Part shown: piece by piece, positions 2,522-44,211 of the stretch | How positions within the stretch are numbered: the first letter of the stretch is position 1 | Layout of the letters: every line of letters starts with the position of its first letter | Assembly: GCA_020634075.1 (NCBI GenBank) | Contig: JACKCJ010000009.1 | Location: forward strand, 31,997 to 95,996 | From: Dehalococcoidia bacterium | GTDB lineage: Bacteria > Chloroflexota > Dehalococcoidia > UBA2979 | Reading direction: 5' to 3' | DNA: 64,000 bases | Position numbers and translations under genes: made by a program | The notes under the pieces: generated by a model | What the model was told of the DNA's origin: nothing | The model's database searches: none | The model's input: the letters and a program-made list of their open reading frames with translations, nothing else

Positions 2522-3688
2522 ATGACCGCATCGAACTCGACCGCCGATCCCGCGAGCGCGGAGGCGCTACCGCCGCCCGAGGAGATCGTCGCGCCGAGCG
2601 GGGCCCGTGGCGCGCTCTACCGGCTGCGCACGCCGATGACCTCCACCGCGCTGCCGTGGGTCATGCCGTACGCGTTCGTCCCGCCGAGCTCGTCTGATGC
2701 GGGCGTGACGCTCTTCGACGCCGGCTACGGCACCGCCGAGGCGACCGAGGCGCTCACCGCCCAGCTGGAAGCGCTCGGCCGGACGCCGGCCGACGTGCAG
2801 CGGCTGATCGTCTCGCACTTCCACCCGGACCACGTCGGCATGGCCGGCTGGCTCAAGGAGCAGAACGCCGACCTCGAGCTGGTGATGCACCGCGCCGACG
2901 CCGCGATCTACTCCGGCATGGAGCGCGGCCACGACCACTGGGAACAGACGATGCGCCAGTGGGGCATCCGCCACGGCTTCGACCCGGCCGACCTCGACCA
3001 GGCCGAGGAGGAACGCCGCGAGCGGCGTGAGCGTGAGCGCGAGCACCGCCACCAGAAGTCCGAGGACACCTCCCGCGAGACCGAGAAGCGGCAGTGGGAG
3101 ATGCGTCGCGTGGAGCCGGCGCGACTGGTCGAGGACGGCGAGGAGATCGCCTTCGACGGATGGACGCTGGTCTCACAGTGGACGCCCGGCCACACGCCGG
3201 GCCACCTCTGCATCCACGTCCCGGATGAACGCCTGACCTTCACCGGCGACCACGTGCTGTCCCGGATCACCCCGAACGTGTCGTTCCACCCCGAGGACGA
3301 GGAGGGCGACCGAAACCCGCTCGCCGAGTTCCTCGCGTCACAGCAGAAGACCGCCGAGCTGGACACGCGCCTCGCGCTTCCCGCGCACGAAGCGCTGATC
3401 GACGACCTCCCGGCGCGCTGCAACGAGATCATCGAGCACCACGACCACCGCGCCGACGAGGTCATCGCGGGCATCGACACAAGCGACGGCGCCGCCGGCT
3501 CGACGGCCTACGAGATCGCCTCGCGCGTGACGTGGAACCGGCCGTGGGAGACCTTCTCGGTCTGGAAGCGCCGCTCCGCGATCGGCGAGACGCTCGCGCA
3601 CCTCCGCCTCGTCGAGACGCAGGGCCGCGTCCGCCGCGTCGAGGACCTCGACGGCGAGCACCCCGTCGTGCGCTGGATGCCGAGCTAG
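2522..3688 (+). CDS. MBL-fold metallo-hydrolase with charged insert and C-terminal winged-helix-like segment
   Basis: Metal-ligand motifs HFHPDHVG (HxHxDH), TPGHTPGH, FTGDHV, PAHE. The track ORF begins at 2315, but its first 69 codons are Arg-rich filler, so ATG 2522 (MTASNST) is preferred. Start uncertain. Confidence 0.85.
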   Translation: MTASNSTADPASAEALPPPEEIVAPSGARGALYRLRTPMTSTALPWVMPYAFVPPSSSDAGVTLFDAGYGTAEATEALTAQLEALGRTPADVQRLIVSHFHPDHVGMAGWLKEQNADLELVMHRADAAIYSGMERGHDHWEQTMRQWGIRHGFDPADLDQAEEERRERREREREHRHQKSEDTSRETEKRQWEMRRVEPARLVEDGEEIAFDGWTLVSQWTPGHTPGHLCIHVPDERLTFTGDHVLSRITPNVSFHPEDEEGDRNPLAEFLASQQKTAELDTRLALPAHEALIDDLPARCNEIIEHHDHRADEVIAGIDTSDGAAGSTAYEIASRVTWNRPWETFSVWKRRSAIGETLAHLRLVETQGRVRRVEDLDGEHPVVRWMPS

Positions 3689-3714
3689 CGCCGACCGTTC
3701 CCGTCGGCCGGCCC

Positions 3715-3739
3715 CAACCTCGGCGAATGGCCGAGGTTG
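3715..3739 (+). terminator. stem-loop after MBL gene
   Basis: CAACCTCGGC / GAATG / GCCGAGGTTG, a 10-bp perfect stem 27 nt after the stop. No U-tract. Confidence 0.5.
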
Positions 3740-3861
3740 TCGCGCAAGCCATCGACGGCGCGCGATGTCGCTACGCCTCCGCAACCCTCCTCGCCGCACG
3801 GTCATGAGTGCGGGGCGCGAGCCCTGCGCGACCGGTTCCGCGAGACCCGAGGAGGACCTCG

Positions 3862-4095
3862 ATGGCAGTGCCCCAGCGACAGCAGTGTGAACACTGCGGC
3901 GCGTCGATGATCGACCCCGCCGCATACGAGAAGCACCTGGCCGAGCACCAGCCACGCGGACGCCGCGAGCGCGGTCAGATCGCGCCCGGCCCCGAAGACC
4001 AGACCGAGGCGGCGGCGGCGGTACGCGAGGAACTCGCCGACCGCGCCCACACCCCCGGCGGCGCCGAACGCCTCCACGACGAGGCGCGTCGGTAG
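3862..4095 (+). CDS. small protein with single C2H2-type zinc-finger motif (77 aa)
   Basis: ATG 3862 with GGAGG at 3851-3855. Motif C-EH-C-GASMIDPAAYEK-H-LAE-H = C-x2-C-x12-H-x3-H. High GC3 throughout. The track ORF (3808) extends 18 codons upstream of the SD-linked ATG. Confidence 0.6.
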   Translation: MAVPQRQQCEHCGASMIDPAAYEKHLAEHQPRGRRERGQIAPGPEDQTEAAAAVREELADRAHTPGGAERLHDEARR

Positions 4096-4146
4096 CCCGG
4101 CCGAACAATCCGCGCGCCCCCGGTGCGCCAGCGAAGGAGCCCAGAC

Positions 4147-4335
4147 ATGGCCGAAGAGAACATGCAGTGCCCGGACTGTGGCATGAAGTTCGACGACGCG
4201 GAGCAGTACCGCGAGCACCGCGCGAAGGAGCATCCGCGCGCTGAGATCGAGGACACCCTCCAGGGCTCGACGAACACCGGCGCCTCCACGGGCGTCCAGG
4301 AGCCGGCCGGCCCGCGCCACGACGAGGGACGCTAG
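4147..4335 (+). CDS. small protein with single C2H2-type zinc-finger motif (62 aa)
   Basis: ATG 4147 with AAGGAG at 4134-4139. Motif C-PD-C-GMKFDDAEQYRE-H-RAKE-H = C-x2-C-x12-H-x4-H. High GC3. Confidence 0.65.
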   Translation: MAEENMQCPDCGMKFDDAEQYREHRAKEHPRAEIEDTLQGSTNTGASTGVQEPAGPRHDEGR

Positions 4336-4337
4336 CG

Positions 4338-4691
4338 ATGGACCCGTCGAACCCGCTCTCCGACGAGACGTACGAGTGCCTCGAGCACGGCCGGCGCTTC
4401 GAGAACCGCGCGGACTACCTCGCGCATCGCACCGCGGACCACCTCGACGCCCCGGCGGACGCCGCCGCGGACCGGGATGAGATCCCCCGCGCCGGCGATG
4501 CTGAGCCGGGCTCCGGCCCCCTCGCCGGCGCGGAGTCCGCGAAGGCGGAGCAGTCCGACGAGTCCGAGGGCCTCGAGGAGCGCATGGTCAGTTACGGCCA
4601 GACCGAGGATCACCCGGCGCGACTGGAGCACGACGACCGCCTCGAGCGGGACGTGCATCGTGCCCCGACGCCCTCGGACACGAACCGCTAG
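4338..4691 (+). CDS. small acidic protein with degenerate (C-H-H-H) zinc-finger motif (117 aa)
   Basis: ATG 4338, 2 nt after the previous stop; GAGGGA lies upstream. Motif Y-E-C-LE-H-GRRFENRADYLA-H-RTAD-H is paralogous to the two preceding ORFs. The tail is acidic and low-complexity. Confidence 0.6.
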   Translation: MDPSNPLSDETYECLEHGRRFENRADYLAHRTADHLDAPADAAADRDEIPRAGDAEPGSGPLAGAESAKAEQSDESEGLEERMVSYGQTEDHPARLEHDDRLERDVHRAPTPSDTNR

Positions 4692-4725
4692 CTCGGCTCA
4701 AACCGCCAGCTCCGCTCAAACCGCT
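4690..4725. repeat. 18-bp x2 tandem direct repeat abutting the stop of the third zinc-finger ORF
   Basis: AGCTCGGCTCAAACCGCC (4690-4707) and AGCTCCGCTCAAACCGCT (4708-4725), 16/18 identical. Confidence 0.8.
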
Positions 4726-4752
4726 CGCGCAGGGCGGTCGCGTCCTTCAGCC

Positions 4753-5508
4753 CTACATCGCCTTGAGGCGCTCGGCGACGAAGGCGCGGCCGGCCTTGCG
4801 GCCCTCCTCGGGCATCTCGGCGTGCGCGCCGAGGTAGGAGAGGAGCCGCTTGTCGCGGGTACCGAAGAGGTCGAACAGCGCGAGTGAGCCGTCGCGCGTG
4901 AAGCGCTCGTCGTTCCATTGCATGATGAAGACCACCGGGCAGCGGACGAGCGGCGCTCGGTTCACGAGCAGTCCGCCGATGCTGCTGCGTGACGGCGTCG
5001 AGCCGGCCGTGCCGCACAGACCGAGGGCGGCCACCTTGATGCGCGGCTCCGAGGCGACGTACGGGACGCCGATCAGCGAGCCCATCGACATGCCGGACCA
5101 GCCGACCCGCTCCGGGTCGAACCAGCCGGTCTCGAGCAGGGAGGTGAGGACGAGCGACCAGTCCGCGTTGGCGTTGTCGGTCATCACCTCGGAGTCCGCC
5201 CACAGCGCGTAGTACTCGGGAGAGCGTCCGGCGACGCCGCCGCGCTCACCGTGGCCGGGGGCGTCGATCGCCACCGCGGGGATGCCGTGCTCGAGGACGA
5301 AGCCACGCCCCGTCGGCACGATGCTCGGCGCCTTCTTGTTCCCACCGCCGCCGTGGCCGATGAGGACCAGTGGCGAGTTCGCGGGGACGCCGCCCTCCGG
5401 CGACCACATCACGCCGGTGATCGTGTCACGCGCCCCCTGGATCTCGAACTCACGCTCGCGGACACCGTCCGCCACCGTGCCATCGCCTCGCCAGTTGATG
5501 TCCGCCAT
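4753..5508 (-). CDS. alpha/beta hydrolase (dienelactone-hydrolase-like)
   Basis: 251 aa. GHGGGGNKK segment and G-M-S-M-G-S nucleophile elbow (G-x-S-x-G). Coding-like GC3. Confidence 0.8.
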   Translation of the reverse strand: MADINWRGDGTVADGVREREFEIQGARDTITGVMWSPEGGVPANSPLVLIGHGGGGNKKAPSIVPTGRGFVLEHGIPAVAIDAPGHGERGGVAGRSPEYYALWADSEVMTDNANADWSLVLTSLLETGWFDPERVGWSGMSMGSLIGVPYVASEPRIKVAALGLCGTAGSTPSRSSIGGLLVNRAPLVRCPVVFIMQWNDERFTRDGSLALFDLFGTRDKRLLSYLGAHAEMPEEGRKAGRAFVAERLKAM

Positions 5509-30611: not shown

Positions 30612-32998
30612 TGGCCTCGGCGCCAACGTTCGACCAGCTGCTCGCCCGCACCCCCCAGAACGAGGTGGCCCCCGAGACGCGCGCGTCCGCCTGGCGCTCG
30701 TGGGAATCGTGGATCACGTTCGCCCTGATCGTGTTCGTGCAACTTCCGGTCGTCGGCTCGCTCCAGTCCTCGGAGTGGGTCCGTGAGATGCCGAATCTCA
30801 TGGTCCCCGCGCTGGCCGGTCTGCTCCTCGCGTGGACTGTCGGACATAGCCGCCTCGGCGGTCTCGCTTCCGCAGCCATCGCCACCGTCGCCGGCGCCGC
30901 GCTCGTCGTCGGCATGGTCATGCACACCATGATCCTCGCGCTGCCGACCTCGGCCGGGCTGTCCGGTCGCTGGTACGAGCTGCGGCTCCGCCTGTGGGAG
31001 TGGGGCAAGGCGCTCATCGGCGAGGGGATCTCCGCCGACCCGCTGCCCTTCGTCGTGATGCTCGTCTCCGCGGTCTTCCTCGTGGGGTTCATCTCGACGT
31101 GGGCCGTCGTGCGGTGGAAGAACCCTTGGGTCGCGCTCATCCCCGGCGGCTTCGTCCTGCTGACCAACATCTCCTACCTCCCGGGGCAGCCCTCCTTCTC
31201 ATTCGTCGTGTTCCTCGTCGCCGCGATCCTGCTCGTCGCGCGGCTGACGTTCCTCCAGTCTGCCTCGGTGTGGCGCAGCCAGGGCGTCGCGCCGCGCGAG
31301 GGCATGTCGCTGGAGGTGCTCTTCGTCGGCGCAATCGTGGCGTCGGGTCTCATCCTCGCCGCGTGGCTCATCCCGACGGCGAACAACTTCGGGCCCGCCG
31401 CCGATCTGTGGGGACGCGCCTTCTCGCCGGTCGCCGACCGCGTCGATGTCCTCGGGCGGCTGTTCATCGGCGTCGGCTCGAAGAAGCCGATCCCCGTGCA
31501 CTCGATGGACGCGGTGCTGCCCCTGCAGGGCCGCGTCGGCCTCGACGAGGTCGTCCTGTACGAGGTCGTCGCGCCCGAGGAGCTCAACCTCCGCGGCGCG
31601 GTCTACGACGAGTACACGGGGGCGGGCTGGCGGGTCTCGCGCGCCTCGGCGGTGCCGCTCGTCGGGACGACGGTCGAGGCCGCGCAGCTCGGGACGCCCT
31701 CGAGCCGCGCCCAGGTCCGCGACGCGGTGCGGGTGGACATCACCGTGGTGGACGAGTCGGCGCCCGGGAACGTCCTGCTGAGCGCCGGCGACCCCATCGC
31801 CAGCGACCAGGACGCGAACCTCATCGTCGACGACGTCGGCGGGCCGCTTCAGCTCCGCCCCGACTCCGGCATGACCGAGGGCGACACCTATTCCACCGTC
31901 GGGACGCGTTCGGCCGCGGCGGAGGACACGCTGGCCACCGCCGGCACGGTCTACCCGGCGGATATCCTCGACCGCTACCTCGACCTCCCGAGGGACGTGC
32001 CACCCGAGGTGGGCGACCTCGCCCGCGAGGTCGCGGGCAACGCGGCAAACCCGTACGAGGCGGCGCGCCTCATCGAGACCTACCTGCGCCAGAACTACAC
32101 GTTCAGCTACGACATCCCGACGCCGCCCGCCGGGCGCGACGCCGTCGCGAACTTCCTCTTCGAGTCGAAGACCGGGTACTTCGACATCTTCGCGTCCTCG
32201 ATGGCCGTGATGCTGCGCGAGCTCGGCGTTCCGACGCGCGTGGCGGTGGGATTCGCGCTCGACGACTCCGACTACAACTCGGCGACGAAGGCGTACAGCG
32301 TCACCGAGGAGCAGGCGTGGACGTGGCCCGAGGTGTTCTTCCCGGGCCTCGGCTGGGTGGAGTTCAACCCGACGCCGAGCCGTGACCTCCTCGCGCGCCC
32401 CGGCGATGACAGCGAGGCGCGCGCCGCGGCCGCGAGCGAGTTCGATGACCTGCCGTTCAGCGACGACGAGCTGTTCGCCGAGGTCACCAGCGACGGCGTC
32501 CCGGCCGAGCTCGACTTCGACACCGCGGCCTCCGAGGAGAGCGCATGGGTCGGCCTGGTCGCGAAGCTGATCGGCTGGGCGCTCGTCGCCGCCACCGTGC
32601 TCCTCGTCCTCGTCGTCGTGGTACGCCTGCTGTGGAACCGCATGTTCCGCCACCTCGATGTCCCCGCACGCCGCTGGGCGAAGGTGCAACTGCTCGCGAC
32701 GATCGCCGGCCTGCGTCCCGCCGAGGACCGCACACCCATCGAGGAAGCCGACGACCTCGCCACGCGGGTGGGACACCCCGACGCCCTGCGCGCCCTCGCC
32801 CGCTCATACACGCGCTCGCGCTACGGCGGCCCCGAGGCTGCGACCGAGACCGACGAGGAAGCGACCGCGCTGGACGATCACTACCGCGCGGTACGCGGTG
32901 TCCTCTGGCGTCGGATATTCACGCGGGTGCGCCGGCTCGGGCGCGTCGAGGGCGGCCCGCTAGCGCGGCGGCGTGCTGCCGTTGGGACCGCTCGGTAG
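30611..32998 (+). CDS. transglutaminase-like multi-pass membrane protein (TgpA-type architecture), catalytic residues substituted
   Basis: ATG 30611 overlaps the DUF58 stop by 1 nt. Multiple N-terminal TM helices. Transglut_core-like segment GYFDIFASSMAVMLRELGVPTRVAVGF...QAWTWPEVFFPGLGWVEFNPT. Confidence 0.85.
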   Translation: MASAPTFDQLLARTPQNEVAPETRASAWRSWESWITFALIVFVQLPVVGSLQSSEWVREMPNLMVPALAGLLLAWTVGHSRLGGLASAAIATVAGAALVVGMVMHTMILALPTSAGLSGRWYELRLRLWEWGKALIGEGISADPLPFVVMLVSAVFLVGFISTWAVVRWKNPWVALIPGGFVLLTNISYLPGQPSFSFVVFLVAAILLVARLTFLQSASVWRSQGVAPREGMSLEVLFVGAIVASGLILAAWLIPTANNFGPAADLWGRAFSPVADRVDVLGRLFIGVGSKKPIPVHSMDAVLPLQGRVGLDEVVLYEVVAPEELNLRGAVYDEYTGAGWRVSRASAVPLVGTTVEAAQLGTPSSRAQVRDAVRVDITVVDESAPGNVLLSAGDPIASDQDANLIVDDVGGPLQLRPDSGMTEGDTYSTVGTRSAAAEDTLATAGTVYPADILDRYLDLPRDVPPEVGDLAREVAGNAANPYEAARLIETYLRQNYTFSYDIPTPPAGRDAVANFLFESKTGYFDIFASSMAVMLRELGVPTRVAVGFALDDSDYNSATKAYSVTEEQAWTWPEVFFPGLGWVEFNPTPSRDLLARPGDDSEARAAAASEFDDLPFSDDELFAEVTSDGVPAELDFDTAASEESAWVGLVAKLIGWALVAATVLLVLVVVVRLLWNRMFRHLDVPARRWAKVQLLATIAGLRPAEDRTPIEEADDLATRVGHPDALRALARSYTRSRYGGPEAATETDEEATALDDHYRAVRGVLWRRIFTRVRRLGRVEGGPLARRRAAVGTAR

Positions 32999-43281: not shown

Positions 43282-44211
43282 ATGCGCCCGATCCACTTCG
43301 CCGTCCTCCTCACCGTCGCCTCGATCTGGGGCGCCTCCTTCATGCTCATCAAGGTGATGTCCGAGGAGCTGTCGCCGCTCGCGATCGTCTGGGTGCGGCT
43401 CGGCGGCGGTGGCATCGTCATCACCGGCGTGCTCGTCGCCCTGCGGGTGCGTGCGCCGAGGGAGCTGCGCTACTGGGGCCACGCGGTCGTCGTCGCGGCG
43501 CTCGGTACGGCGATCCCGTACGTGCTCATCTCCTGGGGCACGGGGCAGATCCCCTCGAACCTCGCCGCCGTGCTCAACGGCGCGATGCCGTTCTGGGTGG
43601 CGATCCTCTCGACGGCGTTCCTCCCCGCCGAGCGCCTGACGACGAACAAGACGATCGGCGTCTCGCTCGGCTTCGTGGGGATCGCGCTGATCATCGGACC
43701 GGACGCGCTCGACCTTCGCGCGGGCAGCACCCAGGGGCAGTTCGCGATCATCCTCGCGGCGTTCTCCTATGCCGCCGGCGCCGTGTACCTGCGGAAGTTC
43801 CTGCTCGGCACCAGCCCGTGGTTCCTCGCCGGCGCGCAGAACTGGATCGCGTTCCTGATGGTGACGCCGCTCGTCATCGGCGCGAGCGAGGTGCCCGACT
43901 TCCCGTCGCTCCAGCGCGACACCCTGCTCGCGGCGGGCGCAGCCGCCCTGCTCGCCCAGGGGACCGCCATCCCGCTCTACTACTGGCTCGTCTCGAACGT
44001 GGAAGCGACGCAGGCCTCGTTCGTGACGTACCTCGCGCCCGTGACTGCGCAGTTCTGGGGCTGGCTCGTCCTTTCCGAGGTGCCCGGCGCAGCCCTGGTC
44101 CCCGGCATGGCGCTGGTGATCCTCGGGATGCTGTTCCTGAACCGCCGCGCGAAGGTGCCCGAAGCTCGCCTTGCGGAAGCGGCGGCCGTCATTTCACGCA
44201 CTGATCACTAG
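43282..44211 (+). CDS. DMT-superfamily (EamA-like) transporter
   Basis: 309 aa, about 10 TM. SIWGASFMLIKV and two EamA-like halves. Confidence 0.85.
   Translation: MRPIHFAVLLTVASIWGASFMLIKVMSEELSPLAIVWVRLGGGGIVITGVLVALRVRAPRELRYWGHAVVVAALGTAIPYVLISWGTGQIPSNLAAVLNGAMPFWVAILSTAFLPAERLTTNKTIGVSLGFVGIALIIGPDALDLRAGSTQGQFAIILAAFSYAAGAVYLRKFLLGTSPWFLAGAQNWIAFLMVTPLVIGASEVPDFPSLQRDTLLAAGAAALLAQGTAIPLYYWLVSNVEATQASFVTYLAPVTAQFWGWLVLSEVPGAALVPGMALVILGMLFLNRRAKVPEARLAEAAAVISRTDH

Follow-up and report, generated by a model that had tools for sequence, protein, structure and literature searches.

The question raised by this locus is what an isolated zinc finger of the eukaryotic kind may be doing in a bacterium. 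The stretch of DNA analysed here (64 kb, 70% G+C, positions 31,997 to 95,996 of contig JACKCJ010000009.1 of a Dehalococcoidia bacterium, assembly GCA_020634075.1), which we call the window as a whole, carries three neighbouring small open reading frames (ORF1, ORF2 and ORF3), each encoding a microprotein with one C2H2-type finger motif. To our knowledge, C2H2 fingers with a spacer of 12 residues are deemed essentially eukaryotic and scarce in archaea. Ros/MucR, with a different spacing and fold, is the characterised bacterial type. Classical fingers have been described as practically absent from bacteria (PMC3541406). The reading that we favour, and hold to be reasonably probable, is that the three proteins are lineage-restricted microproteins composed of an N-terminal classical C2H2 finger of about 25 residues and an acidic disordered tail, and that they act as protein-docking adaptors or regulators.

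A single finger of the classical type in each protein

The finger motifs that an initial annotation, made from the sequence, had read in the three genes were found exactly as claimed (CEHCGASMIDPAAYEKHLAEH in ORF1, CPDCGMKFDDAEQYREHRAKEH in ORF2 and CLEHGRRFENRADYLAHRTADH in ORF3; Table 1). A six-frame scan of the 64 kb for the pattern C-x2-[CH]-x12-H-x3-5-[HC] returned the three finger genes and one unrelated relaxed match on the minus strand (44023-44091) that we attribute to chance; because three matches lie within 560 nt and only one other exists in the entire window, their clustering is far beyond chance. Ligand and pattern counts were taken over 19 family members, the orthologues having been gathered from independent Dehalococcoidia assemblies (L007, L008, L010, L014-L016, L018, L020, L023 and L026). 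The first ligand is Cys and the fourth is His in every member, the second is Cys in 15 and His in four, and the third is His in 18 of the 19. All four ligands are retained in the orthologues of ORF1 (55-78% identity), with the sole exception of that in L023. The hydrophobic pattern noticed at the outset, namely Met, Phe and Phe four residues after ligand 2 in ORF1, ORF2 and ORF3 and a Tyr three residues before ligand 3 (Phe in L020), recurs in 18 of the 19 members and agrees with the classical core x3-F-x5-L-x2-H. ORF1 and ORF2 fit the spacing C-x2-4-C-x12-H-x3-5-H, as does ORF3 save for the His at its ligand 2.

Sequence and fold searches pointed in the same direction. In Pfam, ORF2 matched zf-C2H2 with 22.2 bits (E = 1.8e-4), where the cut-off is 25.2, ORF1 matched zf-C2H2_4 below threshold (E = 0.03) and ORF3 gave no match; across the family, 13 of the 19 members matched zf-C2H2 at E<=0.1 (best 1.8e-4), four matched the protein-binding UBZ finger weakly, and ROS_MUCR was absent from the Pfam results at E<=1. 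The family profile compared with the sequences of the PDB retrieved classical fingers only, including Aart (1e-14) and the consensus finger 1mey (2e-9), both values being summed over repeats, while single fingers such as ZNF524 ZF4 align through ...H-x4-H-P. AlphaFold2 predicted a hairpin (residues 6-15) and a helix (18-28) in ORF2, making a beta-beta-alpha unit over residues 6-28 (predicted local distance difference test score, pLDDT, about 80), and two strands (12-14 and 19-21) and a helix (24-35) in ORF3 (pLDDT about 87), with the rest of both proteins disordered and the finger scores of the two lying between 80 and 88 overall. The top Foldseek matches of both proteins were all C2H2 fingers, with root-mean-square deviations (rmsd) of 0.4-1.5 A over 24-28 columns for ORF2 and of 0.4-1.8 A over the same number of columns for the two proteins taken together, and the fold matches in BFVD were generic C2H2 ones, small "C2H2-type" proteins of tailed phages and haloviruses. 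Taking the spacing, Pfam, the PDB sequence search, AlphaFold2 and Foldseek together, the finger appears to be of the classical beta-beta-alpha type with a spacer of 12 residues and not of the Ros/MucR type, in agreement with the initial annotation. The ligands are conserved under purifying selection, and the fingers of ORF1, ORF2 and ORF3 would be expected to bind Zn(II) tetrahedrally. The proposed paralogy of the single-finger proteins was also borne out by profile alignment (hhalign, E = 1.4e-6 for ORF2 against ORF1 and E = 1.7e-5 for ORF2 against ORF3).

Among the best sequence and fold matches were small proteins of archaeal ribosomes (9qf4_Bk and 9qf5_Bk of the P. furiosus 70S and 6skg_Bo of the T. 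kodakarensis 70S), with 42% identity over 24-26 columns and rmsd values of 0.5-1.4 A, which would speak for an association with RNA or the ribosome, as is seen for the single-C2H2 proteins of these Thermococcales structures. We consider this very improbable, as the matches taken by themselves lack statistical significance (E 0.09-0.6), acidic proteins are ill suited to binding ribosomal RNA, and the variable copy number and gene loss described below are a poor fit to a ribosomal component. No described family matched the three proteins, as the initial annotation had supposed when it recognised no known system: NCBIfam, PHROGs and PADLOC returned nothing, the Pfam matches stayed below threshold, and a literature search retrieved no paper on zinc fingers of such kind in Dehalococcoidia.

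Evidence that the three genes are protein-coding and constrained

The coordinates, strand and lengths first assigned to the three genes (Table 1) were correct, as were the intergenic gaps of 51 nt and 2 nt, ORF3 starting 2 nt past the stop codon of ORF2. Each gene has, as had been noticed, its own Shine-Dalgarno sequence 8-9 nt 5' of its ATG (GAGGAGG, AAGGAG and GAGGGA for ORF1, ORF2 and ORF3, respectively), and the coding-like G+C content at third codon positions was likewise recovered in the annotated frames (0.83 for ORF1 and 0.92 for both ORF2 and ORF3, compared with 0.94 for the neighbouring gene for a metallo-beta-lactamase (MBL)-fold hydrolase). In the public assemblies examined, ORF1, ORF2 and ORF3 had each been predicted by gene callers; a protein identical to ORF2 occurs in 42 indexed blocks of the sequence collection and is recorded at NCBI from a Dehalococcoidia metagenome-assembled genome.

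Ratios of nonsynonymous to synonymous substitution rates (dN/dS), estimated by the Nei-Gojobori method, ranged between 0.09 and 0.45 for ORF1 across seven lineages, between 0.18 and 0.23 for ORF2 against its orthologues and between 0.12 and 0.17 for ORF3 against close orthologues; taken overall (0.1-0.3), the ratios resemble those of the MBL neighbour (0.11-0.39). Changes at third codon positions were 2- to 4-fold commoner than those at first and second positions. Because both the dN/dS values and the third-position excess are found in the annotated frames, the sequence comparisons indicate that ORF1, ORF2 and ORF3 are genuine protein-coding genes under purifying selection. The long minus-strand reading frames that overlap the finger genes were also considered and were discarded as the usual shadow frames of high-G+C DNA.

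Distribution, copy number and history of the family

Word-indexed homologue searches with all three proteins returned close relatives only (65-100% identity). An exhaustive hidden Markov model search, run with the ORF1 profile on 1.84 billion representatives, recovered the cluster of the family itself, a divergent orthologue (P0022) and what is probably a chimera (P0014), all remaining matches being eukaryote-like multi-finger proteins; a metagenome scan with the ORF3 profile found nothing, and neither scans of viral contigs (IMG/VR) nor tblastn of GenBank phages produced relatives of the family. The locus was traced in GTDB genomes by way of the MBL hydrolase that precedes it, and the flanks were read for finger genes. 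As far as these sequences go, the family is confined to one subclade of Dehalococcoidia metagenome-assembled genomes and has no curated entry.

The gene content of the relatives varies. All three types, with ORF3 in its Cys-His-His-His (CHHH) form, are found in the window, in L023 (where ligand 3 of the ORF1 type is degenerate) and in L008 (where ORF3 is frameshifted). L007 has ORF2 and a CHHH ORF3 and no ORF1 type, the promoter-like block being fused to ORF2, and the contig of L015, which begins inside ORF2 and leaves the state of ORF1 uncovered, also shows ORF2 and a CHHH ORF3. In L010 and L018 an ORF1 type accompanies an ORF3 type with the Cys-Cys-His-His (CCHH) set (CADCG) and there is no ORF2, whereas L020 and L026 carry the ORF1 type with neither of the other two; the short contigs L014 and L016 show an ORF1 type only. 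No finger gene adjoins the MBL gene in L021 and L022 (MBL orthologues 53% identical), nor does the 2.3-kb contig of L019 (MBL orthologue 62% identical) contain a finger motif. Since relatives bear one, two or three of the genes, the triplet is not a conserved unit and an obligate three-part form of the heteromeric module that had been suggested is refuted, although a functional pair of ORF2 and ORF3 is still compatible with these data. The 2-nt junction between ORF2 and ORF3 is kept in five of five lineages, which implies translational coupling of the two.

The distribution of the motifs also bears on the order of events. ORF1 types have H-x3-H and the ORF2 and ORF3 types H-x4-H; the finger of ORF2 shares 44% identity with that of the CCHH ORF3 type, its nearest, and 33-34% with the others, and the CHHH state occurs only in genomes that also bear ORF2 (the window, L007, L008, L015 and L023; five of five lineages). 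The simplest history to be drawn from the sequences would be one in which two old types, A (ORF1) and B (the ORF3 type), were followed by a recent tandem duplication of B that gave rise to ORF2, the replacement of Cys by His at ligand 2 becoming fixed in the ORF3 copy after this duplication.

Several members depart from this pattern. In L008 (2478-2809) and L009 (288-633), the orthologues of window positions 4338-4691, indels that sum to -31 nt place the finger part of ORF3 (a 73-aa reading frame) and its conserved tail part (a 56-aa reading frame, annotated as a gene) in different frames in both assemblies, and the Gly after ligand 2 is altered (CLEHA); the gene may have decayed recently into a pseudogene or may have been split in two. 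The ORF1 type of L023 (6001-6222; P0022, GCA_050250415.1) has Gly in place of the His of ligand 3, with a new Cys one residue before this position and a new His three residues before it (CERCGASMTDAATHRCGLADH), and has lost the APGPEDQTEAA and HDEARR motifs of the tail, so that it is either in decay or a re-wired site. Another protein of 118 aa, from a 606-nt ENA contig (P0006), joins the N-terminus of ORF3 (to ...VSYGQTE) to the C-terminus of ORF1 (AAAAVREEL...HDQARR) exactly at an 11-nt identity, CCAGACCGAGG, common to both genes (window 3999-4009 and 4598-4608), and represents either a real product of unequal crossover or an assembly chimera. The 142-aa reading frame of P0014 (L025, a 762-nt contig with coverage of about 1), with an Exo_endo_phos-like N-terminus followed by the C-terminal 42 residues of a tail of the ORF1 type, most likely reflects chimeric assembly at low coverage.

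Acidic tails with conserved motifs

The initial annotation described the parts outside the finger as acidic, mutually unrelated and of low complexity. The first two descriptions held, the comparisons between families being non-significant (E 0.13-0.21), and the third did not, for each family has conserved motifs in its tail. ORF1 orthologues share Q-x-APGPEDQTEAA (Q-I-APGPEDQTEAA in ORF1) and a C-terminal TPG-x-AER-x-HDEARR-COOH, both invariant or nearly so, and about half of their tail positions are invariant, similar to the finger; ORF3 orthologues retain a block AEQSD...VSYGQTEDHPARLEHDD-x-LERDVHRAP. Within families, the tail is thus conserved about as strongly as the finger. A short motif P-x3-5-H-D-[DE] recurs near all three C-termini, and as the tail-only comparisons are not significant we do not claim its homology across types. 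The tails are rich in His, Asp and Glu, the ORF3 of L023 holding 10 His, including an N-terminal DHHGGH.

Small paralogous genes in tandem, with genes for an MBL hydrolase, an alpha/beta hydrolase and M16 peptidases close by, would also suit unfolded precursors of ribosomally synthesised and post-translationally modified peptides (RiPPs), or peptides unstructured in some other way, that these hydrolases and peptidases process. We find this hardly credible given that the flanks show no RiPP maturase (radical SAM, YcaO or lanthipeptide synthetase), the finger core is complete and classical including its hydrophobic positions, and the C-termini are conserved and not hypervariable.

Protein docking as the proposed role

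The charge of the proteins bears on their role. The isoelectric points (pI) of the whole proteins lie between 4.5 and 5.9, the finger segments have net charges of -1 to -3 against +1.9 for a Zif268 finger, and the residues read from the sequence at helix positions -1, 2, 3 and 6 are D/E/Q/E in ORF2, D/A/A/K in ORF1 and N/A/D/A in ORF3. Since both proteins and fingers are acidic and these helix positions are mostly Asp, Glu or Ala, docking to a protein is favoured over the reading of DNA or RNA, and the nucleic-acid binding module first envisaged for the cluster is argued against. Protein-binding C2H2 fingers exist, an example being UBZ, to which four family members gave the weak matches mentioned above. 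According to the docking model, the zinc-stabilised finger would be a small knob for a protein partner and not a reader of DNA, the conserved motifs of the tail would make functional contacts, and the proteins would behave as adaptor or regulator microproteins, of which ORF2 and ORF3, which would be translationally coupled, may work as a pair. The finger-gene unit would be transcribed from its own conserved promoter-like block, and the partner is perhaps related to the ever-adjacent MBL-fold hydrolase. The functional step of this model is suggested by charge, by the pattern of conservation and by adjacency.

A role as small DNA-binding transcription regulators, like Ros/MucR or AFV1p06 and perhaps autoregulating through the block upstream, has to be set against this. 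C2H2 fingers are typically readers of DNA. A conserved non-coding block does lie 5' of the unit, and AFV1p06, a single finger with disordered termini, binds DNA (PMC3541406). Such regulators are nevertheless unlikely here, considering the acidity of all three proteins and of their finger segments, the lack of basic flanks of the sort that single-finger DNA binders need, the Asp, Glu and Ala residues that occupy most recognition-helix positions, and the failure of the finger to show either the Ros/MucR spacing or the corresponding Pfam match. The 18-bp repeat next to the genes, which the initial annotation had named among the nucleic acids to be tested for binding, proved to be a strain-level duplication: L002, a near-identical contig, has one copy only, as does L004 beside an N-filled gap, and L007, L018 and L020 have none. 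Being strain-level and not conserved, it is no credible binding target.

Two further explanations assign the metal itself a role. In one, the proteins are buffers, sensors or chaperones of zinc or another metal for the neighbouring metallo-hydrolases, the CCHH and CHHH sets providing graded affinity, an idea already found in the initial annotation, or redox sensitivity and the tails rich in His, Asp and Glu providing extra metal sites. The constant adjacency to a hydrolase of the MBL-fold zinc type with M16 peptidase genes nearby, the fixed swap of Cys to His that is always paired with a CCHH copy, and the composition of the tails, that of L023 ORF3 above all, agree with such a function. We regard it as quite unlikely, however, since only their adjacency links the genes to the hydrolases, the motifs of the tails do not look like typical His clusters, Pfam and NCBIfam revealed no homology to metallochaperones that are known, and MBL orthologues outside the subclade do without finger genes. 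In the other, ORF2 (Cys2His2) and ORF3 (Cys1His3), as a translationally coupled pair, would together with ORF1 form a zinc- or redox-graded switch, their fingers of unlike ligands folding and unfolding at different levels of metal or oxidant. Depending on the state of folding, the conserved tail motifs would be accessible or masked, and through them a partner, for instance the MBL-fold hydrolase, would be regulated. We think this switch distinctly improbable; if true, bacteria would here employ C2H2 fingers of the eukaryotic type for regulation in a way that has no described counterpart.

Returning to docking microproteins as the preferred reading, a number of results weigh against it. None of the 19 family members attains the Pfam gathering score, and the Foldseek E-values of ORF2 and ORF3 are non-significant, because the domain has only about 25 residues. 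AlphaFold2 may draw zinc-finger folds irrespective of the ligands, and some predicted zinc-finger microproteins are free of metal (PMC11241148); the predicted fold is hence no proof of metal binding, for the CHHH finger especially. The tail-only profile comparisons between the three types show no significant relationship (E 0.13-0.21), and adjacency is the only ground on which the hydrolase is named as partner, its more distant orthologues (53-62% identity) being without a finger gene. Finally, the deletion of ORF1 in L007, the frameshift of ORF3 in L008 and L009 and the loss of ligand 3 in the ORF1 type of L023 suggest that individual members are dispensable.

Flanking elements and neighbouring genes

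The finger genes appear to be transcribed together and apart from the gene upstream, as was first proposed. A promoter-like block 5' of the first finger gene is conserved in eight lineages. Its cores are CTACGCCTCCGCAAC (3771-3785) and, after 10 nt, GCACGGTC (3796-3803), and it is kept before whichever finger gene comes first, which in L007, where ORF1 is deleted, is ORF2. The block has no match in Rfam, no consensus RNA structure (alifold, -3.2 kcal/mol) and no sigma-70 consensus; we read it as a probable promoter or operator for the finger genes. The hairpin that had been held to separate the unit from the upstream gene exists and is not conserved in relatives, its 5' arm having been kept in neither L007 nor L008; the terminator scan found no T-tract in it, and it may be a terminator in the strain of the window.

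Table 1. Positions of the finger genes and surrounding features in the window
Feature	Position	Strand	Description
MBL-fold metallo-hydrolase	2522..3688	+	388 aa; Pfam Lactamase_B E=1.4e-25; NCBIfam Strvi_7410-family E=5e-46, below cut-off
Hairpin	3715..3739	+	Perfect 10-bp stem, 5-nt loop, after the MBL gene
Conserved non-coding block	3730..3806	+	About 75 nt long, preceding the first finger gene; aligned across 6 and across 8 lineages
ORF1	3862..4095	+	77 aa, type-A microprotein; finger C9-x2-C12-x12-H25-x3-H29 encoded at 3886-3948
ORF2	4147..4335	+	62 aa, type-B microprotein; finger C8-x2-C11-x12-H24-x4-H29 encoded at 4168-4233; tail acidic, disordered
ORF3	4338..4691	+	117 aa, type-B microprotein, His at ligand 2; C14-x2-H17-x12-H30-x4-H35 encoded at 4377-4442; long acidic tail
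18-nt tandem repeat	4683..4725	+	2.4 copies, overlaps the ORF3 stop codon
Convergent alpha/beta hydrolase	4753..5508	-	251 aa; Pfam Hydrolase_4 E=2.7e-7; usual downstream neighbour

Upstream, the finger genes adjoin the MBL gene without exception (L001-L008, L010, L018, L020, L023 and L026). Residues from about 158 to 196 of its product form a highly charged insert rich in Glu and Arg (DQAEEERRERREREREHRHQKSEDTSRETEKRQWEMRR), which is conserved in the orthologues that precede finger genes, the corresponding segment of L021 (53% identity, no finger gene nearby) being much less rich in these residues. The stop codons of the MBL gene (3686-3688), ORF2 (4333-4335) and ORF3 (4689-4691) each lie inside a GCTAGC palindrome (gaGCTAGCgc, acGCTAGCga and ccGCTAGCtc, respectively), and a perfect inverted repeat of 12 nt joins the stop regions of the MBL gene and ORF3 (3679-3690 and 4686-4697). 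A second inverted repeat, of 17 nt (3821-3837 and 4719-4735; GCCCTGCGCGACCGGTT and AACCGCTCGCGCAGGGC, 16 of 17 positions complementary), brackets the three-gene cluster almost exactly; it was considered as evidence of a mobile cassette and dropped, its upstream arm not being conserved in L008, and is probably non-functional. In the ORF1-only lineages with a downstream flank (L014, 511-864; L026, 3569-3871), the next reading frame starts with M-x-DP-x-RRRVT-x-TLTLTD... and is followed by an Xre-type helix-turn-helix gene on the opposite strand, and in L026 a sequence similar to that reading frame (MTLTLTAEEAARF...) recurs about 600 nt further on.

Significance and relation to known zinc fingers

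The locus provides a bacterial family of single classical-type fingers, supported by selection, in a free-living lineage of Chloroflexota. With a tandem duplication that can be dated, a fixed Cys-to-His ligand swap and acidic tails bearing short conserved motifs, it provides a natural setting in which to ask which functions a lone C2H2 finger can have other than reading DNA, and how the chemistry of the ligands changes once a gene has been duplicated. Its impact is limited by the restriction of the family to a few uncultured genomes and by the lack, as yet, of a functional handle. The novelty has limits as well, since small proteins labelled C2H2 are present in tailed phages and haloviruses (BFVD) and single classical-type fingers in archaeal viruses.

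Compared with the classical TFIIIA/Krueppel-type C2H2 finger (PF00096 and PF13894), the only class matched in the sequence and fold searches, the proteins share the C-x2-C-x12-H-x3/4-H spacing, the predicted beta-beta-alpha fold, the Gly after ligand 2, the aromatic residue or Met four positions after this ligand and the aromatic residue three positions before ligand 3. They differ in their bacterial host, in having one finger instead of an array, in being acidic and not basic, in lacking a TGEKP-type linker, in scoring as a family under the Pfam gathering cut-off and in the His at ligand 2 of ORF3. With Ros/MucR they have in common a bacterial origin, a small size and a single Cys2His2 site, whereas their spacer of 12 residues, ordered part of about 25 residues, acidity and lack of a ROS_MUCR match set them apart from that family as it is defined (PMC9779718).

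The resemblance of CPDCG in ORF2 to the motif of the haloarchaeal zinc-finger micro-proteins, which the initial annotation had pointed out, does not place it among them, as their definition demands two C(P)XCG motifs, which form C4 zinc-ribbon-like sites (PMC11241148), and ORF2 has a single one. ORF1 (CEHCG) and ORF2 (CPDCG) have one such half-site each and ORF3 has none, and the second half-site here is H-x3/4-H on a helix. Size class and a one-domain zinc-binding design, predicted in our case, are what these proteins share with HVO_2753 and HVO_0758. The single-C2H2 proteins of the Thermococcales 70S (9qf4_Bk and 6skg_Bo) and the tailed-phage proteins of BFVD are likewise small (47-90 aa) and have a single classical-type finger, but they have no significant sequence relationship to the present family and are either bound to ribosomes or of unassigned role. 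AFV1p06 (PDB 2LVH) resembles our proteins in having one classical-type finger with disordered flanking sequence, and non-canonical ligands are tolerated in both, Glu in place of His-4 in AFV1p06 and His in place of Cys-2 here (PMC3541406); its origin in an archaeal virus and its binding of DNA are the features by which it is set apart by description. The fold itself is a known one, and what distinguishes the present family, which belongs to no curated one, is its bacterial host, the union of a single finger with an acidic tail and a tandem paralogy in which a CHHH copy has become fixed.

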